From contig JBBSCB010000002.1 of NCBI GenBank assembly GCA_038250675.1, forward strand, positions 2,658 to 66,657: 64,000 bases of DNA, given 5' to 3'. Source of the DNA: Gemmatimonadales bacterium (GTDB lineage: Bacteria > Gemmatimonadota > Gemmatimonadetes > Gemmatimonadales > GWC2-71-9). Shown here one piece after another: positions 24,141 to 50,531 of the stretch (the first letter of the stretch is position 1; every line of letters starts with the position of its first letter). The notes beneath the pieces were generated by a model. That model saw only the letters and a program-made list of their open reading frames with translations, made no database searches and was not told the DNA's origin. Made by a program: the position numbers and the translations under genes.

Positions 24141-24178
24141 GTCGTCGAGTCCAGTCCAGAGTGGAAGGAGGTGATGGG

Positions 24179-26032: not shown

Positions 26033-26157
26033 CGCGGATGGCCTTTGCAGGGGTCCCGCAACGTACGGCCCGGTACGGGCGCACGCCATCCCGCGGTACG
26101 GGTCGCTTGTTCCCGGTGGCCGCTCCGGCCTATGATCCGGCTGGAATGGAGGCGCCA

Positions 26158-32382: not shown

Positions 32383-32615
32383 CGCCGCGGGCTCCGGTGG
32401 CGGACGACTCAATATGCGCATCCAGGCCGATCCCGGGAGCCGGTGGGCCGGGCGAGCGGCGGGCACGCGCCTGGCCCATAGGGCGCTCCAGCGCGGCGTG
32501 CGTGCCGGGGCAGCATGACCGGCCCGTGCGTTTCCGCGACGGATCCCCGGAACCACGAGCGCTGCTCCGTAACCGGTCCGGCCCCGTCCATTCGGCCGCG
32601 CGGCCGCGCGGCCGC

Positions 32616-32659
32616 AAGCGGGCCCCGGCATATCCGTGATGGAGTGCCGGGGCCCGCTT
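32616..32659. terminator. Strong stem-loop downstream of pilC
   Basis: AAGCGGGCCCCGGCA-(14-nt loop)-TGCCGGGGCCCGCTT, 15-bp perfect stem, 27 nt after the pilC stop. The T4 run is on the plus-strand side. Confidence 0.5.
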
Positions 32660-32685
32660 TTCACATCGACCGATGGCGTCGCGGT

Positions 32686-33894
32686 CTACTGCACCGCGTT
32701 CATCATGTCGAAGATCGGCAGGTACATCGCCACCACCATGCCGCCGACGATCACGCCGAGGACCACGATCATCACCGGCTCCATGAGGGACAGAAGCGCG
32801 CCCACGGCGACGTCCACTTCCTCGTCGTAGAAGTCGGCGATCTTGGTCAGCATCTCGTCGAGGCCGCCGGTCTGCTCGCCAACCGCGATCATCGAGATGA
32901 CCATGGGCGGGAAGACCTTGGACTTGTCGAGCGGCGCCGCGATCGTTTCACCGCCGGCGATCGACTGCCGCGATTCCATGACCGCGTCGTGAATGACGCG
33001 GTTGCCCGACGTCTTGGCTGTGATCTCCAGGCCGTCGAGGATGGAGACGCCGGAGCTGATCAGCGTGCCGAGCGTGCGGGTGAAGCGGGAGACGGCCGAC
33101 TTCCGGAGCATGTCGCCCAGGACCGGCGCCTTCAGCATCATGCTGTCCACGTTCTTCCGTCCCACCGGCGTCGCGGCGTACTTCCGGAACGCAAAGACCG
33201 CCGCGCCCAGCGCCAGCAGGATGGCCCACCAGAAGCCGATCAGGATATGCGAGGCGCCGATCACGACGCGGGTCGGCAGCGGCAGCTCCATGTTGACCGA
33301 CGCGAACATCGCCTGGAAGGTCGGGATGACGAAGATCAGCAGCACCGTGATGGCGATGCCGGCGACGCTCATGATGACCGCGGGATAGACCATGGCGCTC
33401 TTCACCTTGCGCACCAGCGCGTCGTTCTTCTCGAGGAACGTCGCGAGGCGCAGCAGGATGGTGTCGAGAATACCGCCGGCCTCGCCGGCCGCCACCATGT
33501 TCACGTAGAGCTGGGTGAACGCCTTGGGGTGCTTCTGGAAGGCATCCGCCAGCGTGTTGCCGCTTTCCACGTCGTAGACCACCGCGCGGGTCACGTCCTG
33601 CAGCGACTTGTTCTCGGTCTGCTGCGCCAGGATGGTGAGCGACTGCACCAGCGGCAGGCCGGCGTTGATCATCGTGGCGAACTGCCGGGTGAAGATGACG
33701 ATGTCGCGCGTCTTGATGCGCGGCCCGCCCCCGAAGCTCAGCTTGATCGCCTTGGGCGCCTCCCGCACGTTCACCAGGATCATGCGGTTCTTGCGCAGGT
33801 ATGCGCTGACCTCGTCCTTCGAGGCCACGTCCATCTGGCCCTTCTGGATCTGTCCGGTCGACGCGTTGCGCGCGGTGTACTCGAAGACTGGCAT
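32686..33894 (-). CDS. pilC: Type IV pilus assembly platform protein PilC (GspF family)
   Basis: 402 aa, duplicated T2SF domains, N-terminus MPVFEYTARNASTGQIQKGQMDVASKDEV, GEQTGGLDEML motif. Confidence 0.9.
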   Translation of the reverse strand: MPVFEYTARNASTGQIQKGQMDVASKDEVSAYLRKNRMILVNVREAPKAIKLSFGGGPRIKTRDIVIFTRQFATMINAGLPLVQSLTILAQQTENKSLQDVTRAVVYDVESGNTLADAFQKHPKAFTQLYVNMVAAGEAGGILDTILLRLATFLEKNDALVRKVKSAMVYPAVIMSVAGIAITVLLIFVIPTFQAMFASVNMELPLPTRVVIGASHILIGFWWAILLALGAAVFAFRKYAATPVGRKNVDSMMLKAPVLGDMLRKSAVSRFTRTLGTLISSGVSILDGLEITAKTSGNRVIHDAVMESRQSIAGGETIAAPLDKSKVFPPMVISMIAVGEQTGGLDEMLTKIADFYDEEVDVAVGALLSLMEPVMIVVLGVIVGGMVVAMYLPIFDMMNAVQ

Positions 33895-33936
33895 CAGTGT
33901 GCTCCTGTGGAGTTCGGCGGAACGTCCGCCTTCCGC

Positions 33937-35076
33937 CTACCGCCTGCCGCCCGCCATGGCCGTCCGGCCGCTGCCGTTCTTGTCCGCGCCAACGCCCTCG
34001 TCGTCCAGCGGGCGCTCCCCGATCATCCGGAGGAACTCGTTGGGGTCGGAGGACACGCGCAGGCACTCTTCCCGGGTGACTTCCCGGCTGGTGTACAGCT
34101 GGTACAGCGAGTCGTTCATCGTCTGCATGCCGAACTTCTTGCCCGACTGCATCGAGGAATAGATCTGGTGAATCTTGTCGTCGCGGATGAGCGCACGGAT
34201 CGCCGGCGTGGCGATCATGATCTCCGACGCCATGCAGCGCCCCCGGCCGCGGGCGTTCTGCAGCAGCGTCTGGGTCAGCACCCCCTCGAGCACGAACGCC
34301 AGCTGCGCCCGCACCTGGGCCTGCTGGTTGGCCGGAAAGACGTCGATGATGCGGTTGATCGATTCCGCCGCCGAGTTGGTGTGCAGCGTGGCCAGCGCCA
34401 GGTGGCCGGTCTCCGCGATCGTCAGCGCCGCGGAAATCGTGTCCAGATCCCGCATCTCGCCCACGAGAATCACGTCGGGATCCTCGCGGAGGGCATACTT
34501 GAGTGCGCTCTGGAAGCTCTTGGTGTCGGTGCCCACCTCGCGCTGGTTGACGATGCACGAGTGGTGGCGGTGGATGAACTCGATCGGGTCCTCCACCGTG
34601 ATGATATGCCCCTTGCGCTCCTTGTTGATCTTGTCGATGATGGCGGCCAGCGTCGTGGACTTGCCGGAGCCGGTCGGGCCGGTCACCAGGATCAGCCCGC
34701 GGGGCCGCTCAGCGAGCTTCGAGACCACCGGCGGCAGGCCGAGGTCCTGGAAGGTTCGCACATTGAACGGAATCATGCGGATTACCATGGCCACGCAGCC
34801 GCGCTGCTTGAAGCAGTTGCCGCGGAACCGGGCCAGATTCTGGATGCCGAAGCTGAAGTCCAGCTCGTCTTCGGTCTCGAACCGCTTCTTCTGGTTCTCG
34901 GTCAGGACCGAGTACGCCAGCTGGAGCGTATCCTTGGGCGTGAGGAGCTCGGGGACGGAGCTGTTGGTGATGTCGCCGTCCACGCGAAGCTTGGGACGCT
35001 CGCCCGCGGTGATGTGCAGGTCGGACGCCTCCTTTTCGATCATCTCCTCGAGCAGGGCCCGCAGGTTGAAGCTCAT
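33937..35076 (-). CDS. pilT: Twitching motility ATPase PilT
   Basis: ASDLHITAGERPKLRVDG, Walker A GPTGSGKSTT, TVEDPIEF, DPDVILVGEMRD, GHLALATLHTNSA (Asp/His boxes). Confidence 0.9.
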   Translation of the reverse strand: MSFNLRALLEEMIEKEASDLHITAGERPKLRVDGDITNSSVPELLTPKDTLQLAYSVLTENQKKRFETEDELDFSFGIQNLARFRGNCFKQRGCVAMVIRMIPFNVRTFQDLGLPPVVSKLAERPRGLILVTGPTGSGKSTTLAAIIDKINKERKGHIITVEDPIEFIHRHHSCIVNQREVGTDTKSFQSALKYALREDPDVILVGEMRDLDTISAALTIAETGHLALATLHTNSAAESINRIIDVFPANQQAQVRAQLAFVLEGVLTQTLLQNARGRGRCMASEIMIATPAIRALIRDDKIHQIYSSMQSGKKFGMQTMNDSLYQLYTSREVTREECLRVSSDPNEFLRMIGERPLDDEGVGADKNGSGRTAMAGGRR

Positions 35077-36800
35077 TCGGCCGTCTCCTTCACGACTTCC
35101 TCGAGGGTGGTGACGCCCTTTTTGATCTTCACGAGCCCGTCCATCCGGAGGGTCAGCATCCCCTCGGCCACGGCCTGGTCGCGAAGCTCAGCAACGGACG
35201 CGCCACGCAGGATCATCCGGCGCAGCTCGGGTGACATCGACATGACCTCATACAGCCCCGCGCGACCCTTGTAGCCGAGTCCGCCGCAGGTATCACACCC
35301 CTTGCCCTTCATGAACGGGATCTGGCGCATGGACTCAAGATCCGTGCCCAGGGAGACGAGTTCCTCCTCCGTGTACCGGGCGGGGGCCTTGCAATCCTTG
35401 CAGACCCGCCGGACCAGCCGCTGGGCCACCACGAGGTTGACGGCGCTGGCCACGTTGAAGGCCTCGATGCCCATGTCGATCATACGGGTGATCGTGCTGG
35501 GCGCGTCGTTCGTGTGCAGCGTCGAGAGGACCAGGTGGCCGGTGAGCGCGGCCTTGATGGCGATGCCGCCGGTTTCCAGGTCCCGGATTTCGCCGACCAT
35601 GATGATGTTGGGGTCCTGCCGCAGGAACGCCTTCAGGGCGGCGGCAAACGTCATCCCGATCTCGTTTCGCACCAGCACCTGGTTGATGCCCATCAGGTTG
35701 TACTCGACCGGGTCCTCGGCCGTCATGATGTTGACCCCGATCTTGTTGATCTGCGACAGGGCCGAGTAGAGCGTGGTGGTCTTGCCCGAGCCAGTCGGCC
35801 CGGTGACGAGCACCATGCCATACGGATTGAGAATCGCCTTCATCAGGTCGGCTTCCGCCTTGGGCTCGAAGCCGAACTTCTGGAGGTCGAGCGTCAGGTT
35901 GCCCTTGTCCAGAATACGGAGCACGATCTTCTCACCAAACAGCACCGGCAGCGTGGACACGCGGAAGTCAATCACGCGATTGCCCATCTTGAGCTTGAGG
36001 CGGCCGTCCTGCGGCACCCGGCGCTCGGCGATGTTGAGCTGCGAGAGGATCTTGATGCGCGAGGTCAGCGCCGCCTTCATCTTCATCGGCGGCTTCATGA
36101 TCTCGATCAACGCGCCGTCGATGCGATAGCGGATCCGGATCTCATGCTCGAACGGCTCGATGTGGATGTCGCTGGCGCCGCGACGCACCGCGTCGGTGAG
36201 CACGCCGTTGATCAGCTTCACCACCGGCGCATCGTCGATCTGCGCCTGGCTCGCGGCCTCGTCCTCCTGCTCCTCGAGGATCTCGACGTCCTCGTCGCCC
36301 ATCGCCTCCATGTCGCGGAGGATGTTGGTGAGCTGCTGCTGCTCGGCGGCACCGGTGTCGTAGTGCTTTTCGATCAGCGCGCGGAGCGTGTATTCCCCGG
36401 CGATGACCGGGAAGAGATCGTAGCGGGTGATGAACTTGAGGTCCTCCAGCAGGCCGATGTCGGTGGGATCGGCCATGGCGACGGTGAGCGTGCGGCCTTC
36501 GCGCTTGAGCGGGAGGACGACGTTCTTTATGGCCATGTCGGAGGGAATCAGCTTGACGATCTTGGGATCGACCTCGAAGCGCGAGAGGTCCACCGCCGGC
36601 ATCCGGTACTGGCGGGCCAGCACCTTGGTGATATCCAGCTCCTGCACCAGGCCCATCTTGACGAGCAGGTAGCCCAGGCGATGCTTGGTGGTCTTCTGCT
36701 CGGCGAGCGCCTGTGCCAGCTGCTCGCGCGTCAGGAGACCCTCCTGCAGGAGGACCTGGCCCAGCCGGTCGCCTGTTGCCGCTGCCGCAACTGTCGTCAT
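35073..36800 (-). CDS. pilB: Type IV pilus assembly ATPase PilB (GspE family)
   Basis: N-terminal MshEN-type domain (LGQVLLQEGLLTREQL), GASDIHIEP, GPTGSGKTTT, zinc tetracysteine CKDCKAP...CDTCGGLGYKGR. 4-nt overlap with pilT. Confidence 0.9.
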   Translation of the reverse strand: MTTVAAAATGDRLGQVLLQEGLLTREQLAQALAEQKTTKHRLGYLLVKMGLVQELDITKVLARQYRMPAVDLSRFEVDPKIVKLIPSDMAIKNVVLPLKREGRTLTVAMADPTDIGLLEDLKFITRYDLFPVIAGEYTLRALIEKHYDTGAAEQQQLTNILRDMEAMGDEDVEILEEQEDEAASQAQIDDAPVVKLINGVLTDAVRRGASDIHIEPFEHEIRIRYRIDGALIEIMKPPMKMKAALTSRIKILSQLNIAERRVPQDGRLKLKMGNRVIDFRVSTLPVLFGEKIVLRILDKGNLTLDLQKFGFEPKAEADLMKAILNPYGMVLVTGPTGSGKTTTLYSALSQINKIGVNIMTAEDPVEYNLMGINQVLVRNEIGMTFAAALKAFLRQDPNIIMVGEIRDLETGGIAIKAALTGHLVLSTLHTNDAPSTITRMIDMGIEAFNVASAVNLVVAQRLVRRVCKDCKAPARYTEEELVSLGTDLESMRQIPFMKGKGCDTCGGLGYKGRAGLYEVMSMSPELRRMILRGASVAELRDQAVAEGMLTLRMDGLVKIKKGVTTLEEVVKETAE

Positions 36801-36876
36801 GAGCTCGTGGGTTTGGACGTAGAATGAGGCCGATTGGGGCCTCGCAAAGCTAGAATCGGGCCAGCGGGCGCAAGCT

Positions 36877-37521
36877 TTAGCGCACGACCGCCAGATTCTG
36901 CAGCCGGCTCAGGAGGGCGGGCCCGATGCCCGGCACCCGGCCCAGCTCCCGTACCGAGCCAAACCCGCCCACGCTATCTCTAAATCTGACAATCCGTTGC
37001 GCCTTGGCCGGCCCGATGCCGGGGAGGGACTGAAGCTGGGCCGTGGTTGCGGTATTGAGGTCCAGTGGGCCCGCCGAGACGCCGCCCGCGCCCACCGGCG
37101 CCGCCCCGGCGGACCGCGGGCCGGAAGCGCGGGCGGCTCCGGTAAAGCGCAGGTGGGGGCCCAGTGATGCCAGAAGGGCCGGACCCACCCCGGGCACCGA
37201 ATCGAGCCCCGCGAGGCCGCCAAAGGGGCCGTGGGCTTCGCGGTATGCCACGATGGCCCGAGCCAGCCCGGGGCCAACCCGGGGCAGCCGGGCCAGTTCG
37301 GCGGCCGGGGCCCGGTTGGCGTCGATCGCCTCGCCGGCTGCCAGAGGCCGGGCAAGGTGCACTGCGCTGTCGCGGTGCGCCAAGGGGGCACCCGGTCTGG
37401 AATCGGCCAGTATCTCGACAGCGCCCGGCGCCCCCCCGGGCCGGAGGAGGAGATAGCGGACCCCCTGCCCGGCCGTGGCCAGGGCCAGCAGCAGGAGAAT
37501 CGCGCGGTGCTCGGCTGACAT
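36877..37521 (-). CDS. ComEA-like helix-hairpin-helix DNA-binding protein (two HhH modules, N-terminal membrane anchor)
   Basis: IDANRAPAAELARLPRVGPGLARAIVAYREAHGPF and LDLNTATTAQLQSLPGIGPAKAQRIVRFRD. Start at MSAEHRAILLLLALATAG. Confidence 0.75.
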   Translation of the reverse strand: MSAEHRAILLLLALATAGQGVRYLLLRPGGAPGAVEILADSRPGAPLAHRDSAVHLARPLAAGEAIDANRAPAAELARLPRVGPGLARAIVAYREAHGPFGGLAGLDSVPGVGPALLASLGPHLRFTGAARASGPRSAGAAPVGAGGVSAGPLDLNTATTAQLQSLPGIGPAKAQRIVRFRDSVGGFGSVRELGRVPGIGPALLSRLQNLAVVR

Positions 37522-37594
37522 GGAGCGGATACTACCGGTGGGGGTGCCGCGCGGCGGATCCAATCCGCGCCGCGTGGTACGGAAAGCCGGGCGG

Positions 37595-38515
37595 CTAGTG
37601 GCCGGCTTCCCGTATCAGCGCCATGGCCACGTCACCAACCGCGGCGAGACTCCGGGCGCTGACCTTGTCGATGGTGTCGTCCCTGGTATGCCAGTAGGAA
37701 TTGGACGGGCCGTAACTGAAGTCCACCAGGTCAACCGCGCGGAGCCCCGCCTTCTGCAGCTCCACGTGATCGTCGGTGAGCGCTTCGCCGTCGGCGTCCA
37801 CAAAGACGTCGGCGTGCCCGGTGCGTCGCGCGGTCTTCCAGATGTTGGCCATCACGTCCGGCGCCGCGATGACCGAGTTGGGCTCACGGGGGATCCGGAG
37901 ATCCCGATCGCCCACCATGTCGAAGAGCACGGCGTAGTCCGGCCTGGCCCCCGGCGCCTGGTGACCGGCGTAGTAGCGGCTGCCGATCAGCACATCGTTG
38001 GGCTCCTTGTAGAAATCGGCGAAGTCCTCGCCGTCCACGAAGAGCAGATCCACGCCGATCCCGGGCGGGGTCTTGCGCAGCGCGTCGGCCACACCGAGCA
38101 GGACGGCCACGCCCGAGGCGCCGTCGTTGGCGCCGGGCACCGGCGCGGCGCGATCCTGGGACCCGGGGCCGTCCGAATACGGCCGGGTGTCCCAGTGCGC
38201 CAGATAGAGCACGCGCTCGGCGGCCGCCGGCCGGAACCGCGCGATGAAGTTGGTGAGCGCCAGCGTATCGCCTTTGGCGGTGACATGGTTCCATCGCTGC
38301 ACGATCAGCGTGTCCGCCCGGACGCGCAGCATGCTGTCGAGCCACGTGGCCTCCTGCCGGTGACCGTCGGTCCCCGGTATCCGCGGGCCAAAGCCGACCT
38401 GCGCCTCGATGTACTGGAAGGCGCGGGCGCCGTCGAACTCGCGCGGCGGCGCGGCGGGGGCGTCCCGGCATGCGGCCAGGAGCGAGACCAGGGCGATCAG
38501 CTTGACCGACGACAT
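37595..38515 (-). CDS. M28-family lipoprotein, glutaminyl-peptide cyclotransferase (QC)-like
   Basis: Lipobox LLAAC. Colinear matches to animal-type QC motifs as I recall them: GANDGASG (GATDSA), LLFVDGEDF (FFDGEEAF), LIGSRYYA (LYGSRHLA), LFDMVG (LLDLIG), DDHVELQKAGLRAVDLV (DDHIPFLRRGVPVLHLI), WHTRDDT (WHTMDDN). Confidence 0.6.
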   Translation of the reverse strand: MSSVKLIALVSLLAACRDAPAAPPREFDGARAFQYIEAQVGFGPRIPGTDGHRQEATWLDSMLRVRADTLIVQRWNHVTAKGDTLALTNFIARFRPAAAERVLYLAHWDTRPYSDGPGSQDRAAPVPGANDGASGVAVLLGVADALRKTPPGIGVDLLFVDGEDFADFYKEPNDVLIGSRYYAGHQAPGARPDYAVLFDMVGDRDLRIPREPNSVIAAPDVMANIWKTARRTGHADVFVDADGEALTDDHVELQKAGLRAVDLVDFSYGPSNSYWHTRDDTIDKVSARSLAAVGDVAMALIREAGH

Positions 38516-38542
38516 GCGGAGTCCTTTGGACCGGGGGCGGGG

Positions 38543-41500
38543 CTAGCGGTAATCACCCGCAAAGAGCGACAGGGAAAAGGTAACCAGCAGGTACAGGTTG
38601 GCGGTCTTGCGGTCGAGCGCACGGAAATCGTTCACCTCGTAGCCCATCTCGACACTGCCGGTGAGGGTCCGGAGGACATCGGTCCGGAGCGAGCCGCGAA
38701 TCGCCTGATTGCGGGTGTCGCCGGTGACCTGACAGATCGAGTCTCCCTCCCGCTGGATGCAGCTCGAATTCGTGTTGCGGGTGATCGTCAGCTGCGACTG
38801 GACCTGCTTGCGGGCCCGGCTGATCGAGGCCGGCAGGCGGAAGCCGTAGCTGAACTGACCGAGCACGTTGCTCTGATCCACGATGGTGCTGCTACCATTG
38901 TTCGCCTGTTCCTGGCTCAGCGAGGAGAGGCGAAAGGTGAGCTGCATGCCGTTGCGGAGGCTCAGCTGCGCGTCCGGCGCAAAGCTGCTCGAGTTGACGT
39001 CGCTCACGACGGCGGGTTCACTGGCCTGGCCCGGCTGCGTAGACGTTCCCGATCGCTTGCGGAATGCGGTGCTGAGTGCCAGCAGCGTGAAGGGGCCGCC
39101 GCGAAAGGTTCGGGTCCACCGGAGACTGCCCGACGGCCAGTCGCGCTGGACGTTGGTGGTGCGCACCTGCTGGTCTCCCGTGAACTGGTAGTACGCCGCG
39201 TCGGTCAGGCTGTACTGCAGCGAGAAGCTCAGTCCGAACGGCAGGTCGGCGCCCGAATTCAGGACCCGCGTGTGCACGTCCGACGCGCTGATGGCGGGTG
39301 CCCCCTGTCGCGAGAGGAAATTGTCGAGGCCGCCGAGCGCCAGCTGATAGCCCAGCGTCGGCTCGAACACGGCCAGGTCGAAGGTGGAGCCGCGGGTGGT
39401 GCGCGCGCTGAGATCGATCGGCCGCATGCGCACGATGCCCCGGGCGATCCGGCTGCTGTCGCCGAGCAGCACGCGCAGCAGCGCCGGCAGACTGGCCGAG
39501 GCACCGAGCTCGCGGGACTGCGAATTATTGAGCGTCTGCGGCAGGATGAACGCGCCGATCGTGTCGCCATCCACGCGGACCAGCGGCCGGCTGGTGAGGC
39601 TGCGTGAGAGCACGAATCCGCCATTCATCGTGTAGCGGGGCTGGATCCAGCTCGAGACGCGGGGCGTGAGCTGGAGCGACGTGACGAGATTGCGGTCGCG
39701 CTCCACACCCGCGTCGATGCCCAGAATCGCCCGGCGGGAGAGTCCGGCAAGCCGGCCCAGGGGTGTCGAATCGGAGTAATGGCGCAGATCGCGGGTACTG
39801 GACAGGTCGCCGTTGAGTGTCAGCATCCCGAGCGGCTGCCAGGTGAGCCCGGCGCTGTTGCGCCAGAGCTGGGAGAGCGAGGTGGTCGGCGTGAGCAGCG
39901 TGTCGGCATCGCGAAACACCGGCACGAGGTAGGTCGTCGAGCTGGCGCGGTCATGGGAGAGCCCCGAGGCGAGCCGGATACTGGTCGGCGTGAGGCTGAC
40001 CGTCGGGTTGCGGAGGGCGCGGCCGATTTCACTTTGCCGGAGCCATTCCGGCAGACTGTTGACCAGTCCGGCGATCGGCAGCCGCGGACCCCGGCGCTGC
40101 AACTGGAGATTGTAGTTGGCGTTGAAGGCGGAGTTGGCCGCGTCCGCGTCGCTCAACTCGGTCCGCGTGTGGCCCCGCGTGACGGCGGCGGCGAGGGTGA
40201 GCGGGTCCAGAAATCCCTTGGCCAGCCAGGTTGTGCCCCGGCGGCTCCGCCGGATCTGCATCGTATAGTTGGTGGTCCACCCGTCAGGCCGACGGAGGCC
40301 CGCGAGGTCGGCGCCGCGCAGGTCCGTTCCCGTGAGCAGCTCGGGATCGACCCGGCTCCGCGTCACGCTCATCGTCACCGGAATGGCCAGCCCCAGCGAC
40401 GTGGGAAGAAAGCGATCGAGTCGCCATGTGCTGCTCACGGCAATGCTGTTGGTGGTTAAATACGATGGGGTCTGGCCGATCTGGCGGAACTGGCCGTCCT
40501 GCCGGATGTAGGCCAGGGCGACGTCGCCGACGTCGGATGCGGTGAGACGGGCGTCCAGCGCGATCGCCTTCCCGGTCTGTGACACGGGGCTCGCCAGCCG
40601 GATGTCGTCGATCCACAGCTCCGCCTCGGGGAGCGGCCCGTGATCGGCCACCCGGTAGATCCCGCCCGCCACTTCCTGGATCGCCGCGAGATTCGGCGGG
40701 TTCACGCCCGGATTGGCGACGTGGACGACGTATCCGTTCTCGCACGCGACGTAGGCCTGCGTGTCGGTGCTGCCGCATTCCGTCGCGCCCGACGGCGGGA
40801 GGCCCTGCAAATACTGACTCTCGATCTGCGCCCGGAGCCGCCGCCAGACCGAGAGGTCCACGACGAACTCGGGCTCCCAGTCGGTCGTCCTGGCCGGCGC
40901 ATGGTAGAGATAGAAGTTGTTGACGTCACTCCCCAGCTTGATGAAGGCGTGAAGATCGCCCGCCTCCCAGCCAGCGCCGCGCCCGCGCATCCAGACGCGG
41001 AGCTCGCTGTAGTTGAGGAGATTCTGCGGGCCGCTCTGGAAGCGCAGGTAGGCCTCGGCGCGCTCGCCGACCCGGAGGTCGCGCCCGATGACGCGGAGCG
41101 ACTTCTCGTTGATCTGCTGGCCCAGGGCCTGCTGGCCGACGTCCTTGCGGTCGGTCGCACTCAGCACGCCGGGTGGCGACACGTAGCCCAGGTCGCCCTT
41201 GTTCTCGGTCGAGATGATGGACGTGAGCACCTCGCCGTGCGCCTCACCGACCGAGCCGCTCAGTCCGGCGACCGGCTGGTCGGTGCGCCGGACCCAGGGC
41301 GCGCCGACAAACCGCATGCGGGCAAAGGCAAAGCGCCCCACCACATCGGGCTGGCCGTTGTCGTTGGGCGCCACGACCGTGATGCGCAGCGACTTGATCA
41401 GCCGGATGTTGGGGGTGCCGATCGCGCGCGCATTGGTGATGGCCAGCGGGACCCGGTACAGCGTCCAGCCGGACAGCCGGCCGTTGGTGCCGATCGTCTT

Positions 41501-44500
41501 GATGCCGCGGTTGGGTACCTTGAAGGAATCCGACGAGATCGGCACGACGTAGCGGTAGACGTTATCGTTGGGCCCCGTCGCGTTGAGCTGGAGGTCGCCG
41601 TCGAGGTCCTCGGTGTCCAGCGAGCCGTTCCCGTTGGTGCATCGCGCACTGAGATCGCCCCATGGGAACACCGGCACCACCGAGCTGAGCTGCCGATCGC
41701 ACAGCGCCGCAAACCGCTGCACCTCGCCGTTGACGATCAGCGAATCGGGCCGGTCCTGCAGGATGCCGATGTCATCCGCTTCGGCGTTGAAGATGCCGGT
41801 GGTGGACCGTTCCGTGTCCAGCCGTCCCTGCCCCACGTACTGGCGACCGGTGAACAGACTGTCGCTGCCGGCTACCGTGAGGGACTCCGGTGCGATCGCC
41901 AGCGCGTCCTCGTTGACCGTACCGAGGTCGAACACGAGCTGGAGCCCGGCGGAGTCCGCCGACTCGGCCTGGGACTGGAAGACCCAGAACTCGAGGTATT
42001 CGGTCTTGGAGAGGTCGAGGCCGGTGGTGCTGAGCGATGTGACCATCGAGCGCCAGCGCGGCCGGTTGGAACGGACGGGCAGATGCCACTGCGAACTGTT
42101 GTCGTTGCGCACCAGGCCGCCGGCCGTGTCGGCATGGAGCGTGATGAAGAGCGGCGTCTCGTACTGCGTCCCCGTTCCGGCGAATCGAAACGTCGTATCG
42201 ATGTCCTGCGGCCGGATCTGGACCGGCTTGCCGTCGGCGCCGGCCACCAGGTTCTGCCAGACCAGCTGCACCGCGTCGGCCGGATCGAACTGCGCGCCGA
42301 AGATCGTCTCCAATCCGTCAGTGTGCTGCGGGACGCTGCCAAATTCCCAGCTTTGCTCGCGCATCGGCACCGCGATGCTGGCATCGCTCTCGAATTCCTC
42401 CAGATACGCCGCGCCGGAGCGATTCGGGTCGGGGCGCGAAAAGGCCAGCTCCGCGTTCAGATCCAGCAGCGACGGCGCGGAGGCGCCGGAGGTCACCACG
42501 CCGTCGAGCAGGCGAGTAAGCCACGTGGGTTTGAAATGCAGCTCCGCCGTCGCTCCTGCCATCAGGTTGGCCTTGGCCTCGAAGCCGAGGTGCGGCCGAT
42601 TGAACGCACTGGCCTCGCGCTGCAGCATGCCGATGAAATTGATGGCACCGCGCTCGCCCAGTGAATAGCGGGACGTGAGGCCAATGATGGAGGTGGGCGC
42701 GATGGCGAAGGCGTCCTGCTCCTCGAAGCGGGCGGTGACGGTGGCGCTCCCCGCGCCGAACAAAGCGTCGGGGTTGAGGAACGTCACGCGCCCGGTGGCA
42801 TAGTCGATCGAGTAGTCCACGCCACGCACGAGCTGGCGGCCTCCGACCTGAAGCTGTTCGCTGTTGTCCTTGATCTGCAGGGCGTTGAGCACCAGCGTTG
42901 ATCGGTCGCCGCCGCCGGTGGCGTTGTAGTGCAGGCGGAGCTGAAAGCGCGACGGCGGCCCCTGCGACAGCAGCAGGTACTGCGGCGTCCGATAGAGCGA
43001 ATCCGCCCGCTCGGCCGGCGAGAGACCGGGCGTGTCGAAGAACGGGCGCAGCGTCGGGAAGACGATGTACGACTCGCGGAGAATCTGCTGCGCCGTCGGG
43101 TCCCGCGGGCGGGGAAAGAGCCGGTTGTCCCGGTCGAAATAGCTGGGATCGGTGGGCACCGACAGTCCGAAGAGGGCCAGATAGCTCGGCGCGCCGGACG
43201 CGGGGCGCTCGGAGCGATTGAGTGTGACCGCCGCACCGAGCGACGCCGGATCGAGGTCGGTGCCGGCCACCCGGTAGACCTGCCGCATCTCGTGGTAGAA
43301 CGTGCCCGAGGCGGGGCCCTGGTTGGGCGCCACGATCAGCTCGAGCGTGTCCACCGCCGCAGGGTGATCCTGGCTGGGAAAGGTGCCGACCGTCGTGCCC
43401 GCGCCCGTGGTGTAGCTGACGGCCAGGTAGTCGCGGGTGTCGAGCTTGGTGGCCAGGGCAAACCAGAGCCCCGACCGATCCACGAAGTAATCGGTGCCCT
43501 GAACCAGCAGTTCCCACCGTGGACCCTCATCGAGCTGTCGGGCTCCCACCAACTGCGTCGTGTCGCTGGGATTGTCGTGGTTCCGGGCGAACGCGGCCAG
43601 CCCGGCGAGGTTGGGGTCGAGGCCGGTCCGCGGCACCCCCGACTTATAGCGGTAGACGCGAATCTGCACCGGCCGAGCCGCGGCCGGCACGAGTGTCGGA
43701 TCCAGATTCAGGATGTCGAGTTGCGGGTAGCCCGCCACCCGACGCGGATCCACGACCCAGAAAAAGCGGCCGGACTCGTAGTCGAGATCGCGCACCTGCC
43801 GGTCCTGCGGCTGGCTCGTGGTGGTGCCGCCGATCGTGTAGACGCGGTTGGCGAGCGCGCTCCCCTTCTGGGTGGCCAGGAGCGCCTGGAACTGCATCGG
43901 GCCGACCTCGAAGGTGGCGTTGACGCCGAAGTTGTTGGACGGGATCGCCGCCGTGAGGAAGCGCGAGGGCGGAGGCCGGAACGTGACGGTGCCGATCTCG
44001 ACCCGCCGCAGCACTTCGTCCTCGAGGCCCTGGTAGTAGACCTGGATGAGGTTGTTGGCCGTAAAGTCCCGCTCGGAGTTGTAGTCCACGTTGACGTGGA
44101 ACCGCTGCCCGATGATGCCGCCGACCCGGGCGTTGATCTGGTTCTCGAGGCGGGGCGGCTTGATCTTTCCGTTGCACCCGGCCAGCGGGTCCTGGAGCTC
44201 GGCCGCGGTGCAGCGCAGGTTCTTGAACCGCTCGGTCCGGATATCGATCGTGGCATTGCCATCGATGGCCAGATCGACATCTTTCTCCGGCAGCCCGAAC
44301 GCGCCCAGCCGGACCGGCGCTTCCTGCCCGCCGGCTTTCAGCGGTGCGCCGTAGCCGTAAAGGACCGCTCGGCGCCGGGCCCCGGCACGTGCCGTCCGCG
44401 CCGAATCGAGAGCATGACCCACCGCACTGTCAAATCGCGCGCCGAACCACCGCCCCTGCAGCACGGCGGGAATCCGCAGCGTAAGTGCCGGCGCAGGAAA

Positions 44501-44605
44501 ATGCAGTTGGAAGCCGATGCCAGCGGTGTCCGACTGGGCTGCCAGAACGCGGGGCACCGCGAGCAGCAGGGTCAGGGCAAGGAATGGACGCGCCAGGCTA
44601 GGCAA
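38543..44605 (-). CDS. sprA: Giant outer-membrane protein, SprA-like (putative T9SS translocon)
   Basis: 2020 aa with a Sec signal peptide (LLLAVPRVLAA|QSD). Beta-rich Ser/Thr/Gly/Asn/Tyr composition throughout, and a C-terminal aromatic-ended strand (...SLSLFAGDYR). A QC-like gene lies immediately downstream, and PorV-like and CTD-cargo genes are in the same window. The assignment rests on size, architecture and context, not on a search. Confidence 0.5.
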   Translation of the reverse strand: MPSLARPFLALTLLLAVPRVLAAQSDTAGIGFQLHFPAPALTLRIPAVLQGRWFGARFDSAVGHALDSARTARAGARRRAVLYGYGAPLKAGGQEAPVRLGAFGLPEKDVDLAIDGNATIDIRTERFKNLRCTAAELQDPLAGCNGKIKPPRLENQINARVGGIIGQRFHVNVDYNSERDFTANNLIQVYYQGLEDEVLRRVEIGTVTFRPPPSRFLTAAIPSNNFGVNATFEVGPMQFQALLATQKGSALANRVYTIGGTTTSQPQDRQVRDLDYESGRFFWVVDPRRVAGYPQLDILNLDPTLVPAAARPVQIRVYRYKSGVPRTGLDPNLAGLAAFARNHDNPSDTTQLVGARQLDEGPRWELLVQGTDYFVDRSGLWFALATKLDTRDYLAVSYTTGAGTTVGTFPSQDHPAAVDTLELIVAPNQGPASGTFYHEMRQVYRVAGTDLDPASLGAAVTLNRSERPASGAPSYLALFGLSVPTDPSYFDRDNRLFPRPRDPTAQQILRESYIVFPTLRPFFDTPGLSPAERADSLYRTPQYLLLSQGPPSRFQLRLHYNATGGGDRSTLVLNALQIKDNSEQLQVGGRQLVRGVDYSIDYATGRVTFLNPDALFGAGSATVTARFEEQDAFAIAPTSIIGLTSRYSLGERGAINFIGMLQREASAFNRPHLGFEAKANLMAGATAELHFKPTWLTRLLDGVVTSGASAPSLLDLNAELAFSRPDPNRSGAAYLEEFESDASIAVPMREQSWEFGSVPQHTDGLETIFGAQFDPADAVQLVWQNLVAGADGKPVQIRPQDIDTTFRFAGTGTQYETPLFITLHADTAGGLVRNDNSSQWHLPVRSNRPRWRSMVTSLSTTGLDLSKTEYLEFWVFQSQAESADSAGLQLVFDLGTVNEDALAIAPESLTVAGSDSLFTGRQYVGQGRLDTERSTTGIFNAEADDIGILQDRPDSLIVNGEVQRFAALCDRQLSSVVPVFPWGDLSARCTNGNGSLDTEDLDGDLQLNATGPNDNVYRYVVPISSDSFKVPNRGIKTIGTNGRLSGWTLYRVPLAITNARAIGTPNIRLIKSLRITVVAPNDNGQPDVVGRFAFARMRFVGAPWVRRTDQPVAGLSGSVGEAHGEVLTSIISTENKGDLGYVSPPGVLSATDRKDVGQQALGQQINEKSLRVIGRDLRVGERAEAYLRFQSGPQNLLNYSELRVWMRGRGAGWEAGDLHAFIKLGSDVNNFYLYHAPARTTDWEPEFVVDLSVWRRLRAQIESQYLQGLPPSGATECGSTDTQAYVACENGYVVHVANPGVNPPNLAAIQEVAGGIYRVADHGPLPEAELWIDDIRLASPVSQTGKAIALDARLTASDVGDVALAYIRQDGQFRQIGQTPSYLTTNSIAVSSTWRLDRFLPTSLGLAIPVTMSVTRSRVDPELLTGTDLRGADLAGLRRPDGWTTNYTMQIRRSRRGTTWLAKGFLDPLTLAAAVTRGHTRTELSDADAANSAFNANYNLQLQRRGPRLPIAGLVNSLPEWLRQSEIGRALRNPTVSLTPTSIRLASGLSHDRASSTTYLVPVFRDADTLLTPTTSLSQLWRNSAGLTWQPLGMLTLNGDLSSTRDLRHYSDSTPLGRLAGLSRRAILGIDAGVERDRNLVTSLQLTPRVSSWIQPRYTMNGGFVLSRSLTSRPLVRVDGDTIGAFILPQTLNNSQSRELGASASLPALLRVLLGDSSRIARGIVRMRPIDLSARTTRGSTFDLAVFEPTLGYQLALGGLDNFLSRQGAPAISASDVHTRVLNSGADLPFGLSFSLQYSLTDAAYYQFTGDQQVRTTNVQRDWPSGSLRWTRTFRGGPFTLLALSTAFRKRSGTSTQPGQASEPAVVSDVNSSSFAPDAQLSLRNGMQLTFRLSSLSQEQANNGSSTIVDQSNVLGQFSYGFRLPASISRARKQVQSQLTITRNTNSSCIQREGDSICQVTGDTRNQAIRGSLRTDVLRTLTGSVEMGYEVNDFRALDRKTANLYLLVTFSLSLFAGDYR

Positions 44606-44642
44606 TCAGGACCGCTTCGGGCTTGTGGGTGGAGGAGCGCAA

Positions 44643-44648
44643 TATAAT
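44643..44648 (+). promoter_or_regulatory. Candidate -10 hexamer (TATAAT) upstream of lptF in the sprA/lptF divergent region
   Basis: Perfect TATAAT 38 nt upstream of the lptF GTG. Weak -35. Confidence 0.3.
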
Positions 44649-44685
44649 GGCCGCAAAAACCCGGTACAACAAGCGTGGTTAGGCC

Positions 44686-46155
44686 GTGCGACTGATCCGC
44701 CGGTACCTGCTGCGCCAGCTCACCGGCCCGTTCCTTTACGCGCTGGCCGGCCTCACCGGCTTCATGCTGCTCAACCAGGTGGCGCGCCGCTTTGGCCAAC
44801 TGGTGGGTAAGGGACTGGAATGGACCGTCATCGCCGAGGTCTTTGCGCTCAGTCTCCCGTTCATCGTGGCGATGACGCTCCCCATGGCCGTGCTGGTGGC
44901 CGTGCTGTACACCTTCAGCCATCTCGCCGCCGACAACGAGGTGACCGCCATGCGGGCCGGCGGCCTCAGCGTCCTCCAGATCCTGGCCCCCGTGGTGCTC
45001 TGGGGCGCCCTGACGGCCAGCGCGAATTTCGTCTTTGTGGATCAGGTGCTGCCGCGCAGCAACGCGCGGCTCAAGGCGCTGCTGACCGACATCTACCGCA
45101 AGAAGCCAACGTTCGAACTCCATGAGCAGGTCATCAACAACGTGCCGCCCTCGCAGTACTTCCTGCGCGCGGGACGGATCGAGGCCGGCACGGGGCGGCT
45201 CCGGGACGTCGTCATCTACGACGTCGGCGACCAGACCGGGCGCCGGATCATCTATGCCGACAGCGGGCTGATGGGCCTGGCCCCGGGCCAGCGTGATCTC
45301 AGTCTGCTGCTGTATGACGGCGCGGTCCATGAGCTCAAGACGTCGGCGCCGTCGGAGTTCCGGCTCACCTACTTCCGCACCAACCGGATCCGGGTGCGGA
45401 ACGTCTTCGACGAGCTGGAGCGCAACACCAACACGTCACGCGGCGACCGCGAGATGAGCACCTGCGAAATGCTGGGTGTGGTCCGGCTGGCGGACCGCCA
45501 ACGGCGCCAGGCGGAACTGGACCGCGACGCGCTGCTGGACCGCGACCTCCGCACGCTCGTGGGGCTCGGGCCCCGCACCGCCGGCGCGCCCGCCGCCGAG
45601 CGCCCACTGCCGCGCTACTGCACCCTCGGCGCCGTGCTGGCCCACAGACTGGGGGGGACGGCCAAGCCACCGCCGCCCGCACAGGCGGCACGTCCGGCCC
45701 CCATCGTCGCGACACCGGGCGCGGTGCTGGCCACGTGGTCCGACGTCGCGTCGCTGCGCGACCGGATCACCGAGGCGGACGGCCGGGGTGACCGCTATCT
45801 GGTCGAAGTGCATAAGAAGTGGTCGATCAGCGCCGCCTGCATCACCTTCGTGCTGATGGGCATCGTGCTCGCGCTACGGTTCCCACGGGGCGGCATCGGG
45901 CTCGTCGTGGGCGGCGGATTCGGCATCTTTGCCGTGTTCTACGTCTTTCTCACCGCCGGCGAGGCGCTCGCGGACCGCGGCATCGTCGAGCCGGCCCTCG
46001 CCATGTGGGGCCCCAACCTCATCTTCATCCTGGCCGGCATCATCGGCCTCGTGGTGGTGAACCGGGAAACCGGCAGCACCCGGGGCGGCGACTTTCAGGA
46101 GATCATCGAGAACCTGCGCGCCTGGCTCCGGCGCCGGCGCCGGAGCGCCGCGTGA
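44686..46155 (+). CDS. lptF: LPS export ABC permease LptF (YjgP/YjgQ family)
   Basis: MRLIRRYLLRQLTGPFLYALAGLTGFMLL...EVTAMRAGGLS, a periplasmic beta-jellyroll insert, then 3 C-terminal TM helices. Confidence 0.8.
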   Translation: MRLIRRYLLRQLTGPFLYALAGLTGFMLLNQVARRFGQLVGKGLEWTVIAEVFALSLPFIVAMTLPMAVLVAVLYTFSHLAADNEVTAMRAGGLSVLQILAPVVLWGALTASANFVFVDQVLPRSNARLKALLTDIYRKKPTFELHEQVINNVPPSQYFLRAGRIEAGTGRLRDVVIYDVGDQTGRRIIYADSGLMGLAPGQRDLSLLLYDGAVHELKTSAPSEFRLTYFRTNRIRVRNVFDELERNTNTSRGDREMSTCEMLGVVRLADRQRRQAELDRDALLDRDLRTLVGLGPRTAGAPAAERPLPRYCTLGAVLAHRLGGTAKPPPPAQAARPAPIVATPGAVLATWSDVASLRDRITEADGRGDRYLVEVHKKWSISAACITFVLMGIVLALRFPRGGIGLVVGGGFGIFAVFYVFLTAGEALADRGIVEPALAMWGPNLIFILAGIIGLVVVNRETGSTRGGDFQEIIENLRAWLRRRRRSAA

Positions 46156-47237
46156 GCCGGGTCCGGCTGCTCGACCGCTACGTCATCGGCACCTGGCTTC
46201 GGCTGTTCGTGCTCACGGCGCTCGGCTTTCCCTTTGTCGCGGTGCTCATTTCGATGATCGACGGGCTCAACGCGCTGCTCGACAAGGGCCTCACCATGCG
46301 CGAGATCCTGGTGAGCTACGCCTATGCGCTGCCGGAGAACATCTCCCTGGTGATGCCGGCCGCGGTGCTGGTGGCGACGGTGTTCACCATCGGCAACATG
46401 AGCCGCCATTCGGAGCTGACCGCCGCCAAGGCGAGCGGCATCAGCTTCCATCGGCTCCTCCAGCCGATCCTCGGGGCGGCGGCGATCGCCTCGATCGTCG
46501 CCCTGGCCACCGGCGAGCTCGCCGTGAGCGCGACAGCGCGGCAAAAGGTGCTGCAGCATGACCGCGAGGACCAGCCTACCGCGGGCCGGTTCAATTTCGT
46601 CTATCGGGCGGATGGCGGCTGGACCTACGCGATCCGGTCGCTGGACGTCGGCAGCCGGCAACTCAAGGACGTCATCCTGGAGCGGCCCGGCCGGGGCGCC
46701 GAGTATCCCAGTCTGGTCGTGACCGCCGACAGCGCGGGCTACGTGGACAGCCTGCACGCCTGGGAGCTGCGCGACGGCGCCAGCCGGGTGGTGGCCGATG
46801 CGCAGCACCAGGCCACCTTCCGCTTCCGGACGATGCATCTCCGCGCGATGACGCAGAGCCCGGCCGAACTGCTGGCGCCGCCCAAGGCCCCCGACGAAAT
46901 GCGCTACGCCGAACTGGGCTACTATATCGACGCGCTGCGCCGCTCCGGCAACGACACCAACAAGCTGCAGGTGGAGCGGGCGCTCAAGCTCGCCATTCCC
47001 GCGACATGCCTCATCGTGGCGCTGTTCGGCGCGCCGCTCGCGGTGGGCGGGCCGCGCTCCAGCCCGGCCACCGGCATCGCGCTCAGCTTGGCTACGACGA
47101 TCGTCTTCCTGCTCCTCACCCAGATCGCGCGCGCGGTCGGCGCCGGCGGCGTGGTGAATCCGGTGGTTGCCGCGTGGCTGCCCAACGCCGTCTTTCTCCT
47201 CGCGGCGCTGGTCCTGCTGGATCGCGTCCGCACCTAA
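46152..47237 (+). CDS. lptG: LPS export ABC permease LptG (YjgP/YjgQ family)
   Basis: The GTG at 46152 overlaps the lptF stop (GTGA). VRLLDRYVIGTWLRLFVLTALGF...ELTAAKASGIS. Same architecture as lptF. Confidence 0.8.
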   Translation: MSRVRLLDRYVIGTWLRLFVLTALGFPFVAVLISMIDGLNALLDKGLTMREILVSYAYALPENISLVMPAAVLVATVFTIGNMSRHSELTAAKASGISFHRLLQPILGAAAIASIVALATGELAVSATARQKVLQHDREDQPTAGRFNFVYRADGGWTYAIRSLDVGSRQLKDVILERPGRGAEYPSLVVTADSAGYVDSLHAWELRDGASRVVADAQHQATFRFRTMHLRAMTQSPAELLAPPKAPDEMRYAELGYYIDALRRSGNDTNKLQVERALKLAIPATCLIVALFGAPLAVGGPRSSPATGIALSLATTIVFLLLTQIARAVGAGGVVNPVVAAWLPNAVFLLAALVLLDRVRT

Positions 47238-50300: not shown

Positions 50301-50531
50301 GTTGTCCACAATGTAGCCGCCGTCGGAGCGTGAGGTGACGGTGTGGGTCTCACCGGTCGCAACCTGGGTCAGCGTCACGTTCGCGCCCGGCACCGGAGTG
50401 CCGCCCGCTTCGCTGATGACGCCGGTGATGGCCGCCGACGTGATGCCCTGGGCGCTCGCCTGCCGGCCGCTCGCGGTCGCCAGTGCGACGAGCCCAAGGA
50501 CGTACCCTGCCTGACGTATCCACTGCTTCAT
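47331..50531 (-). CDS. TonB-dependent outer-membrane receptor with N-terminal carboxypeptidase-regulatory-like domain
   Basis: Start MKQWIRQAGYVLGLVALATASGRQASA|QG. CarbopepD_reg-like ITGVISEAGGTPVPGANVTLT...SDGGY. Plug and barrel follow, ending in ...RMQVGAKYAF (terminal Phe). Confidence 0.85.
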   Translation of the reverse strand: MKQWIRQAGYVLGLVALATASGRQASAQGITSAAITGVISEAGGTPVPGANVTLTQVATGETHTVTSRSDGGYIVDNASAGGPYTLSIRAIGYQPIRVEGLRLLLGQRLSRNVEMTRAAVQLADVRVPSVSILTDVSRTGPSTVVSDTAIQRYPLLGRNFTDLIQTAPQVSGTSVAGQNNRFNNIQIDGGVNNDLFGLASSGTPGGQANAKPISLEAVQEFRVEVAPFDVRQGNFTGGLVNAVTKSGTNQFHGSLFSYYRGKGIAGYRDDPTFNSFNVYQYGGTFSGPIMRDKLQFFLSADLQSSKSSYSSTFQLTGDNTSDLATTGFTLADAQRFHDILVNQYNFGEPGLGTAPPLSNPDKNLFGKLTWQVGANSRVELSHNWVDASQDQLTRGPTSPRFSTTSPNYRDGYQLSASGYQQANRTNTTRLKWTTTFGNNYANEFLAGGQWVRDHRAITNQTPLILVDVGKVGSLDSWLAAGADKFSQGNLLNQNIYSVADNLSFDIANNHRMTVGTSDEFFKFHNVFTAGSYGAWAFASLDSLANGEAEGYQISLPGDPTLRPDGAVADFSVKQLGAFLQDRWTVNDRISVTGGVRVDVPLFNAPITNPNLTADPNLPIDTGVFPSGNALWSPRLGFNIDADGKSTTVIRGGAGIFSGRPAYVWLSNAYVGTGLETATLSCLTGATIPTFPGGSLADQPTACAGGGGATPATANPVYFDKNFRFPQSLRVALGLDRQLSHGFVASADFLYAKNRNNLYIQDNNLKESAALSGEGRYLYGTFAASNGRATKDLVRSDIGNALFHRNSSGGRSVSITGQLSKTFGHGLALNAAYTYANTKDVISLTSSIAFSNYQFASLDGSLFNRNVTTSAFDVPHKITISGTADLPFHSQFSLIYQGLSGTPYGWTTSGDANADGINGNDMTFVPGDASQITLASGSSFAAVDAFIASQPCLAASRGSLLPRNACRNPWRNFLDARLATTLPSIRGRGIQLSLDMFNVLNFMSHNWGLSNQVSGFEEGPAFLKVVGYDPGNNRPIYSFAPPSTILRTSFGANSSRWRMQVGAKYAF

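Follow-up and report, generated by a model that had tools for sequence, protein, structure and literature searches.

Predicted lipoprotein glutaminyl cyclase encoded behind sprA in Gemmatimonadales and glutamine at signal-peptide junctions

The locus at positions 37595 to 38515 of a 64-kb stretch of Gemmatimonadales DNA (hereafter the window; ~69% G+C) raises the question of whether a protein of the M28 peptidase fold, encoded directly behind a gene for the T9SS (type IX secretion system) translocon SprA, is a glutaminyl cyclase (QC), and whether it serves exported proteins that begin with Gln after signal peptidase I cleavage. A previous reading of the sequence alone had proposed that such an N-terminal pyroglutamylation system operates in this apparently non-Bacteroidota lineage and is hard-wired to the translocon gene. 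The lineage is indeed a different one, Gemmatimonadales, with Gln at +1; the underlying observation is confirmed, and its interpretation is supported in every computationally testable part. The best explanation, to which we assign a probability of roughly 0.8, is a zinc-dependent, lipid-tethered type II QC, predicted to cap Gln-initiated exported proteins including SprA and PorV and encoded in a conserved sprA-QC block. The features first needed are the following (a downward arrow marks a predicted cleavage site):

37595..38515, minus strand: predicted type II (bacteroidal/animal-type) QC, M28 fold, 306 aa (from homology, fold and residues)
38468..38515, minus strand: predicted QC lipoprotein signal peptide MSSVKLIALVSLLAA↓C, lipobox LAAC, Cys16 (from the translation)
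38516..38542, minus strand: sprA-QC spacer, 27 nt, with a Shine-Dalgarno-like AAAGGA at 38522-38527 (sequence read)
38543..44605, minus strand: SprA/Sov, translocon of the T9SS in the outer membrane (2020 aa), with signal peptide ...PRVLAA↓QSD (TIGR04189)
22500..24140 (also given as 22500-24266), minus strand: second M28 protein, aminopeptidase-type, signal peptide ...AAVDA↓QTF (PF04389)

The QC gene runs from an ATG at 38515 to a stop codon at 37597-37595, and its G+C content at third codon positions (0.88-0.90) marks it as a real gene. The N-terminus of its product, MSSVKLIALVSLLAAC, consists of a basic n-region, a hydrophobic core and a canonical lipobox LLAA↓C. Cys16 was invariant among 30 close homologues and lipoboxes were also present in most of the Gemmatimonadota orthologues, which bears out the previous assignment as a lipoprotein with the LLAAC motif.

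A Pfam scan of the protein returned only the generic M28 model PF04389 (2e-31), and no QC-specific model exists in NCBIfam for it to match. A phmmer search against all PDB sequences, with the best matches covering residues 24-301, was far more specific: the leading entries were 3GUX (8.5e-53), TfQC 6QRO (3.5e-52), 3TC8 (1.6e-49) and PgQC 6QQL (5.5e-48), while human QC appeared at ~1e-8 and true aminopeptidases at 1e-6 to 1e-8, the best of them at 1.7e-8. The colinearity with animal-type QC motifs claimed from the sequence alone therefore holds and is stronger than stated, since the best PDB matches are bacterial type II QCs. An AlphaFold2 model, computed with an alignment of the 30 close homologues (mean pLDDT 94, pTM 0.90), gave the same picture in a Foldseek search of the PDB, in which the top 50 matches were all QCs; the bacteroidal enzymes superimposed with TM 0.85-0.92 and a root-mean-square deviation of 1.9-2.6 Å, followed by the QCs of Fimbriiglobus ruber and an Acidobacteriales bacterium.

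In an alignment of 76 sequences (the window protein and homologues from the fetched loci), D131, G132, E163, D164, D199, D248, D249, H250 and H276 were invariant, and W275, preceding the His ligand H276, was predominant. The predicted zinc ligand triad D131/D164/H276 matches D149/D183/H299 of PgQC; in the bacteroidal enzymes the ligands are PgAsp149, PgAsp183 and PgHis299, Asp183 standing for human Glu202 (Taudte et al., PMC7948796). The predicted catalytic E163, as well as D199 and D248/D249 (counterparts of human D248 and D305), belong to the invariant set, and counterparts of human Glu201 and Asp248 are held by the bacteroidal QCs (PMC7948796). The residue after the first ligand is Gly in bacterial QCs, Ser in animal ones and Asn/Asp in aminopeptidases, and the residue before the His ligand is Trp in QCs and Tyr in aminopeptidases (PMC7948796); both discriminators are present in the window protein as D131-G132 and W275-H276. 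The GED triplet, previously listed as a difference from animal GEE, is present as described, but it is not a deviation: it is a signature of bacteroidal QCs (PMC7948796) and a hallmark of the family, because Asp (PgQC Asp183) replaces human Glu202 as a zinc ligand. The Trp of the bacteroidal GSQ(Y/F)W motif near helix alpha6 was not found in the window QC, which has Tyr182 instead; this position was occupied by Trp in 42/42 Bacteroidota homologues and by Tyr or Phe in all non-Bacteroidota homologues. Judged from the alignment, Tyr182 marks a sister lineage and not a lost catalytic residue.

An ordinary periplasmic M28 aminopeptidase, with the junction Gln unrelated to the enzyme, is what the purely generic Pfam match, the missing NCBIfam QC model and the NCBI name of the close homologues, 'M28 family peptidase', would suggest, and the residues of the second zinc site (H107, D131, D199) are all in place. 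Residues of this type, however, are conserved in true QCs as well (PMC11312887), the validated QCs matched 40 orders of magnitude better than any aminopeptidase, and the discriminating Asp-Gly and the Trp before the His ligand are those of a QC. The genuine aminopeptidase-type M28 protein of the window behaved differently in the same PDB search, finding aminopeptidases, glutamate carboxypeptidases and transferrin receptors and no QC, and many of the metagenomic homologues in question (62-75% identical) are already labelled 'glutaminyl-peptide cyclotransferase' by JGI. The aminopeptidase explanation is thus very improbable. On its sequence, its fold, its active-site residues and its contrast to the second M28 protein, the window protein is assigned as a lipoprotein type II QC, predicted to be catalytically active, and not as a generic M28 aminopeptidase.

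The second part of the question concerns the neighbour. SprA matched TIGR04189, an NCBIfam equivalog, with 490 bits (1.5e-146; cutoff 200). Its TAG lies at 38543-38545 and the QC ATG at 38515, so the distance of 27 nt previously given for the two genes is exact. The Shine-Dalgarno-like AAAGGA sits 6 nt upstream of this ATG. A terminator scan found no minus-strand site within 32000-45500 and no terminator-like hairpin in the spacer; the promoter and terminator scans produced matches at the shuffle level and are informative only in this absence of a minus-strand terminator.

Species-representative genomes were scanned for QC relatives, which produced 328 loci, 80 of which were retained for tblastn with the window proteins. 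The closest relatives (50-76% identity) all came from Gemmatimonadales or Gemmatimonadota metagenome-assembled genomes (MAGs), and the next ones, at 33-43%, from Ignavibacteriales, Calditrichaceae, Latescibacterota, KSB1, Zixibacteria, Poribacteria, Armatimonadota and many Bacteroidota. The sprA gene was located immediately upstream of QC and co-directional with it in 22/22 Gemmatimonadota loci, and the pair was still kept in the most distant members, whose SprA identities go down to 29-34%. In the 14 loci whose QC start was callable from the lipobox, the distance between the sprA stop and the QC start was -4 nt (ATGA-type overlap) in four, 1-30 nt in seven, the window among them, and ~100 nt in three; in a further locus (L018) a 4-nt overlap was seen on the longest-ORF start only, no lipobox start being called. 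Outside the phylum the pair recurred in a Calditrichaceae MAG (L022; 2118-aa SprA ORF, 796 bits to TIGR04189) and in an unclassified MAG (L032; 1996 aa, 737 bits), in both cases with sprA directly upstream of QC; the upstream ORFs of four loci checked against this model (L016, L022, L024, L032) scored 497-796 bits. The linkage called 'hard-wired' in the sequence-only reading is thus borne out as gene order, and the sprA-QC pair is an operon-like arrangement without an earlier description. The tight and often overlapping junction indicates that QC and sprA are very probably co-transcribed, possibly with translational coupling.

The pair is part of a larger block, whose other members in the window are as follows:

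36877..37563, minus strand: ComEA-like helix-hairpin-helix protein with an N-terminal membrane anchor, next after QC (PF12836, 4e-37)
35073-36800, minus strand: pilB/gspE-like ATPase (PF00437, 3e-141)
33937-35076, minus strand: pilT-like gene (label inferred from gene order and tblastn matches 73-94% identical)
32686-33894, minus strand: pilC-like gene (label inferred from gene order and tblastn matches 65-90% identical)
44686..47237, plus strand: lptF/lptG-like pair (permease-type membrane proteins), divergent, upstream of sprA (names inferred from the N-terminal pattern)

The order in Gemmatimonadota is lptG-lptF, divergent, followed by sprA-QC-comEA-pilB-pilT-pilC, with the pil genes (32686..36800) as the downstream end; the comEA-like gene was syntenic in 17 Gemmatimonadota loci, and the position of the lptF/lptG-like pair was kept in 16. 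This conservation of the entire block, not merely of the pair, is what would be expected if the QC were a real but general enzyme and its adjacency to sprA functionless, a synteny inherited within a slowly rearranging envelope block (lptFG, sprA, QC, comEA, pilBTC). The same is suggested by the Bacteroidota, where tblastn found sprA within 10 kb of QC in none of ~44 loci, yet the Q-rule, i.e., Gln after the signal peptidase I site, works there; by experiments in P. gingivalis, which speak against a role of pyroglutamate in T9SS targeting; and by window proteins outside the T9SS (the lytic transglycosylase Slt and the second M28 protein) that also carry Gln at +1. Against inherited synteny stands that the pair outlasts its neighbours: insertions of 1-5 kb were present between QC and comEA in four loci and in none between sprA and QC. 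Moreover, sprA and QC overlap by start and stop codon in four or five loci, and the other neighbours of the Calditrichaceae and unclassified MAG pairs differ from the Gemmatimonadota block, lacking pil/comEA genes. Functionless adjacency is accordingly a serious alternative, although we hold it to fall short of even odds.

Several observations were made alongside. The block (window 32686-47237; loci L001-L019, L024, L039, L067) places type IV pilus/competence genes directly behind a T9SS gene. No sprA was found within 10 kb of QC in the Ignavibacteriales, Latescibacterota, KSB1, Poribacteria and Armatimonadota loci either. QC homologues 38-43% identical and with intact catalytic residues occurred without sprA nearby in Poribacteria, Armatimonadota/Fimbriimonadales, Latescibacterota, KSB1 and Zixibacteria (L021, L023, L025, L033, L036, L073, L028, L029, L027, L041); some of the homologues from other phyla seem to carry an ordinary signal peptide and not a lipobox (e.g., L021, L022), and a pooled small sample of the loci from other phyla had 32-37% Q at +1. 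One contig labelled 'Bacillota bacterium' (L003, JBLMWC010000077.1) has 70% G+C and a Gemmatimonadales sprA-QC-comEA block with 73-74% protein identity, and on these grounds the contig or bin is probably misassigned.

The third part of the question is whether the exported proteins offer the substrate. Genes of the window were called by third-position G+C, and signal peptides by a home-made n/h/c model in which the cleavage site was chosen from positions -3/-1 only, +1 being excluded (blind caller). Gln at +1 had been reported in six proteins; these make up the window's classical Sec substrates, and their names are borne out by family scans. Besides SprA and the second M28 protein they are:

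5264..7543, minus strand: Slt-type lytic transglycosylase, N-terminus VMSLLAVSLAILGSA↓QAL (PF01464, 2.5e-24)
47331..50531, minus strand: CarboxypepD_reg and outer-membrane beta-barrel protein (TonB-dependent-receptor-like), signal peptide ...RQASA↓QGI (PF25183 3.7e-51, PF13620)
57566..59038, minus strand: GWxTD-domain protein, signal peptide ...ASAAA↓QGP (TIGR04514, 6e-25)
59235..60356, minus strand: PorV/PorQ-family outer-membrane protein, signal peptide ...GLAA↓QATNQ (NF033709, 3.6e-41)

The blind caller itself set Q at +1 in the second M28 protein (VDA↓Q), the outer-membrane barrel (ASA↓Q) and the GWxTD protein (AAA↓Q). Together with Slt, which has a GSA↓Q site but no basic n-region at its sole canonical start codon, four of the six signal peptides hold an unambiguous AxA↓Q-type site. 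In the remaining two the caller preferred VLA↓AQS (SprA) and AQA↓TNQ (PorV), and Q at +1 needs Leu at -3.

These two cases were resolved by orthologues. Among 120 PorV homologues (69-100% identity), which gave 88 distinct N-termini, Gln directly followed the hydrophobic core in 88/88; it was preceded by Ala in 80, Gly in 6 and Ser in 2, and followed by T, D, A, S, G, E, N and others, while the linker to the conserved NQDNTxYGTT motif was of variable length. Since the residue before Gln is always A, G or S and position +2 varies, A↓Q is the sole conserved cleavage frame. In ten SprA orthologues taken from the loci the junction is A↓QS, A↓QT, A↓QA, A↓QG, A↓QE or S↓QD. On these comparisons the SprA and PorV sites are settled in favour of A↓Q. 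In the GWxTD protein Gln was kept 6-16 residues before the RAVRxYR motif in 73/73 distinct orthologue N-termini (46-100% identity). The orthologue comparisons directly support selection for the junction Gln. The statement that Q occupied +1 at every predicted site stands for the six named proteins, but becomes 6/7 once a further Sec substrate next to PorV, with Lys at +1, is counted; given a control rate of ~0.2 (see below), the chance of 6/6 or 6/7 is about 1e-4 to 1e-3. The further substrate is:

60415-63993, minus strand, running past the window end at its N-terminus (L110:461-4432): protein of 1323 aa, directly upstream of PorV, its start read on an identical contig

A Pfam scan of this protein gave no match; it has a weak C-terminal match to PorZ and possibly a T9SS C-terminal-domain-like tail. 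The multicopper oxidase at 24179-26167 (minus strand) has an RR-type signal without Q and is an exception to the Q-rule; its twin-arginine-like motif makes it probably a substrate of twin-arginine translocation (Tat), outside the rule. A PPC-domain protein at 56044-57495 (minus strand) has an atypical lipobox-like N-terminus, MKQWTRSMLLLAIPALVWG↓C, and adjoins the GWxTD and PorV genes on the identical Logan contig L110 too.

The enrichment of Gln at +1 expected beyond the window was assessed by proxy. For this, 700 kb of plasmid 1 (1.1 Mb) from the cultured Gemmatimonadaceae species Gemmatirosa kalamazoonensis were sampled; the Bacteroidota loci from the QC-relative scan were the positive control, and stretches of an Indioceanicola plasmid (alphaproteobacterium; 500 kb) and of a Ralstonia megaplasmid (250 kb) the negative controls. 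Frequencies of Q at +1 are given as called blind and after refinement by expectation-maximization (EM) over positions -3 to +2:

Gemmatirosa, n=66: 39% blind (26/66; 51% at a stricter threshold), EM 0.60 (bootstrap 0.51-0.69)
Bacteroidota loci, n=105: 42% blind (44/105), EM 0.52
Indioceanicola, n=58: 16% blind, EM 0.23
Ralstonia, n=9: 22% blind, EM 0.18

In its Q frequency the Gemmatirosa replicon looks like the Bacteroidota and unlike the proteobacterial controls, so the expected enrichment was found in the proxy (39% blind and 60% by EM against 16-23%). The difference from the pooled controls (11/67 blind, EM ~0.2) was significant in Fisher tests both with the blind calls (p = 0.004) and with the EM maximum a posteriori assignment (p = 4e-6).

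An artefact of composition and site choice, with true cleavage at AQA↓x in A-rich high-GC peptides and Q therefore at -2, could in principle produce the same appearance: a caller using only -3/-1 gives VLA↓A for SprA and AQA↓T for PorV, and in the alphaproteobacterial control Q stood at -2 in 18% of the sites and followed some allowed site in 47% of the signal peptides. However, the residue after the PorV Gln was small (A, S, G) in only 27/88 N-termini while the residue before it was A/G/S in 88/88, A↓QT, A↓QE and A↓QG occur among the SprA orthologues, and in Gemmatirosa the EM estimate of Q at -2 was 0.00 as compared to 0.60 at +1. Such an artefact is hardly credible as the source of the pattern.

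Two other measures were discarded. The blind caller was dropped as a source of a Q value for the 22 syntenic Gemmatimonadota loci, where independent signal peptides were too few and its matches mostly SprA orthologues or LptF/G and ComEA membrane anchors, and EM on the same loci locked one residue out of register (Q at '+2' = 0.44). The statistic 'any allowed -3/-1 site then Q' gave 63% in Gemmatirosa and 47% in the control and did not discriminate, owing to AQA c-regions. The Ralstonia control alone yielded 9 signal peptides only, and the Indioceanicola control was enlarged. Two side observations belong here. Gln near the cleavage site is no rarity in Indioceanicola (L089-L094, L106-L109), which does not follow the Q-rule, so that Q-rule claims need such a baseline. 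In Gemmatirosa (L081-L088, L095-L100) Arg was the second commonest predicted +1 residue (11/66), and may stem from sites mis-called upstream of the true A↓Q or from Tat-type/anchor sequences.

Taken together, the favoured reading of a lipid-tethered QC acting on Gln-initiated proteins implies the following sequence of events. The QC would pass through Sec, receive its lipid on Cys16 and stay anchored in the periplasm, presumably on the outer face of the inner membrane by analogy with PgQC, a lipid-anchored inner-membrane enzyme (PMC7948796). Pre-proteins would be exported by Sec and cut by signal peptidase I after Ala, Gly or Ser, exposing Gln, which the QC would convert into pyroglutamate with release of ammonia. 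A pyroglutamate N-terminus should resist aminopeptidases, a role demonstrated for the blocked N-terminus in P. gingivalis (PMC10653852). Among the predicted substrates are two T9SS parts, SprA and PorV, along with outer-membrane barrels and periplasmic enzymes. With QC as the second gene of the conserved sprA-QC(-comEA-pilBTC) block, the cyclase would be made whenever the very large Gln-initiated translocon is made, which may be of specific benefit to SprA.

A number of points weigh against this reading. In the enzyme, Tyr182 replaces the bacteroidal Trp and the loop that precedes the WH motif has 3-5 residues fewer; access of substrates may therefore differ. Pyroglutamylation has been shown by experiment not to control T9SS targeting (Bochtler et al. 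2018, PMC5837995), so that the operon may signify no more than envelope functions being expressed together. The signal-peptide caller was home-made, not SignalP or LipoP, and is crude and undercounts, the 60% in Gemmatirosa being reached only after EM. The sample stems from a family other than that of the window, and a search of the Gemmatirosa plasmids found no QC gene on them. The controls comprise two organisms only, of which Indioceanicola has ~16-23% Q at +1 and frequent AQA↓ (~18% Q at -2); with the control already at ~20% Q at +1, the blind measure gives only a moderate contrast. Phylogenetically, the counted orthologues are not independent of one another. Finally, the 1323-aa Sec substrate encoded next to PorV in the same genome has ...TAASA↓KPE, with Lys at +1.

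A further-reaching scenario would make the QC a dedicated accessory of T9SS biogenesis in non-Bacteroidota lineages of the Fibrobacteres-Chlorobi-Bacteroidetes (FCB) group: the sprA-QC pair would be ancestral, kept by Gemmatimonadota and Calditrichota but broken up in Bacteroidota, survival or assembly of SprA and PorV would depend on a pyroglutamate N-terminus, and the Q-rule would have been born with the T9SS and later become proteome-wide. This we consider unlikely.

In the literature, the Q-rule and the cyclase behind it are treated as peculiar to Bacteroidetes and as a target for selective drugs against oral pathogens. Should both operate in Gemmatimonadota as well, one of the major phyla of soil, the trait's origin shifts deeper into the FCB group, and an annotation rule follows for these genomes: signal-peptide cleavage sites are to be placed before Gln, and the corresponding 'M28 family peptidase' entries renamed glutaminyl cyclase. 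The sprA-QC operon is a testable handle on whether a mechanism connects N-terminal pyroglutamylation with type IX secretion or the two just co-occur. The result is of use to specialists in T9SS and Bacteroidota secretion and in the annotation of soil MAGs, without being categorically surprising.

Among known systems, the window QC is closest to the type II QCs of Bacteroidota (PgQC PG2157/6QQL, TfQC 6QRO, BtQC 4FUU/7D1D, PdQC 3TC8), with ~32-40% identity over the catalytic domain. It has in common with them the predicted fold (TM ~0.9), the Asp/Asp/His ligands with Asp for human Glu202, the Asp-Gly, the catalytic Glu, the Trp-His motif and the N-terminal lipobox, and differs in its Gemmatimonadota host, Tyr182, the shorter pre-WH loop and the sprA partner. 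Animal QCs (human QPCT 2AFM, Golgi isoQC 3PB4, Drosophila 4F9U) share the M28-derived single-zinc fold and the catalytic Glu and Asp at ~20-23% identity and TM ~0.7 but, in contrast to the window QC, have the Glu of GEE as a ligand, Ser after the first ligand and no lipid anchor. The di-zinc M28 aminopeptidases (Vibrio/Aeromonas AAP 1AMP, SgAP 1CP7, YwaD 6HC6), with which the second M28 protein of the window groups, have the Pfam family and the metal-binding residues in common with it, but match weakly (1e-6 to 1e-8), follow the bridging Asp with Asn/Asp and have Tyr in front of the His ligand. For type II QCs beyond Bacteroidota, structures from a planctomycete and an acidobacterium already exist: the Fimbriiglobus ruber QC 7D1B and the Acidobacteriales QC 7D18 match the model with TM 0.80-0.84 and the protein with E 1e-30 to 1e-33, and are thus more distant from the window QC than the Bacteroidota enzymes. 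We know of no link of their source organisms to T9SS or the Q-rule.

As for the Q-rule itself, Gln after the signal peptidase I site is found in most Sec substrates of Bacteroidetes (Bochtler et al. 2018, PMC5837995; Mizgalska et al. 2023, PMC10653852), and the Gemmatimonadota pattern is alike in this respect, with T9SS and outer-membrane proteins included and a lipoprotein QC. The rule was described as Bacteroidetes-specific, 'not the entire FCB group', from a survey of Bacteroidetes, Chlorobi, Spirochaetes, Chlamydiae and Cyanobacteria (PMC5837995); that paper mentions no Gemmatimonadetes, be it in its text or its data sheets. High-Q outliers, Ignavibacterium album (77%) and Chloroherpeton (55%), were already noted there, which makes the present extension incremental. 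A 2024 review states that T9SS 'may also be present' in Gemmatimonadetes, and in the searchable library no paper was found joining Gemmatimonadota with glutaminyl cyclase. The sequence comparisons support the occurrence in Gemmatimonadota of a trait that had been ascribed to Bacteroidetes alone. Neither the enzyme class nor the Q-rule is thus new in itself; the novelty lies in documenting both for Gemmatimonadota and in the conserved sprA-QC pair.

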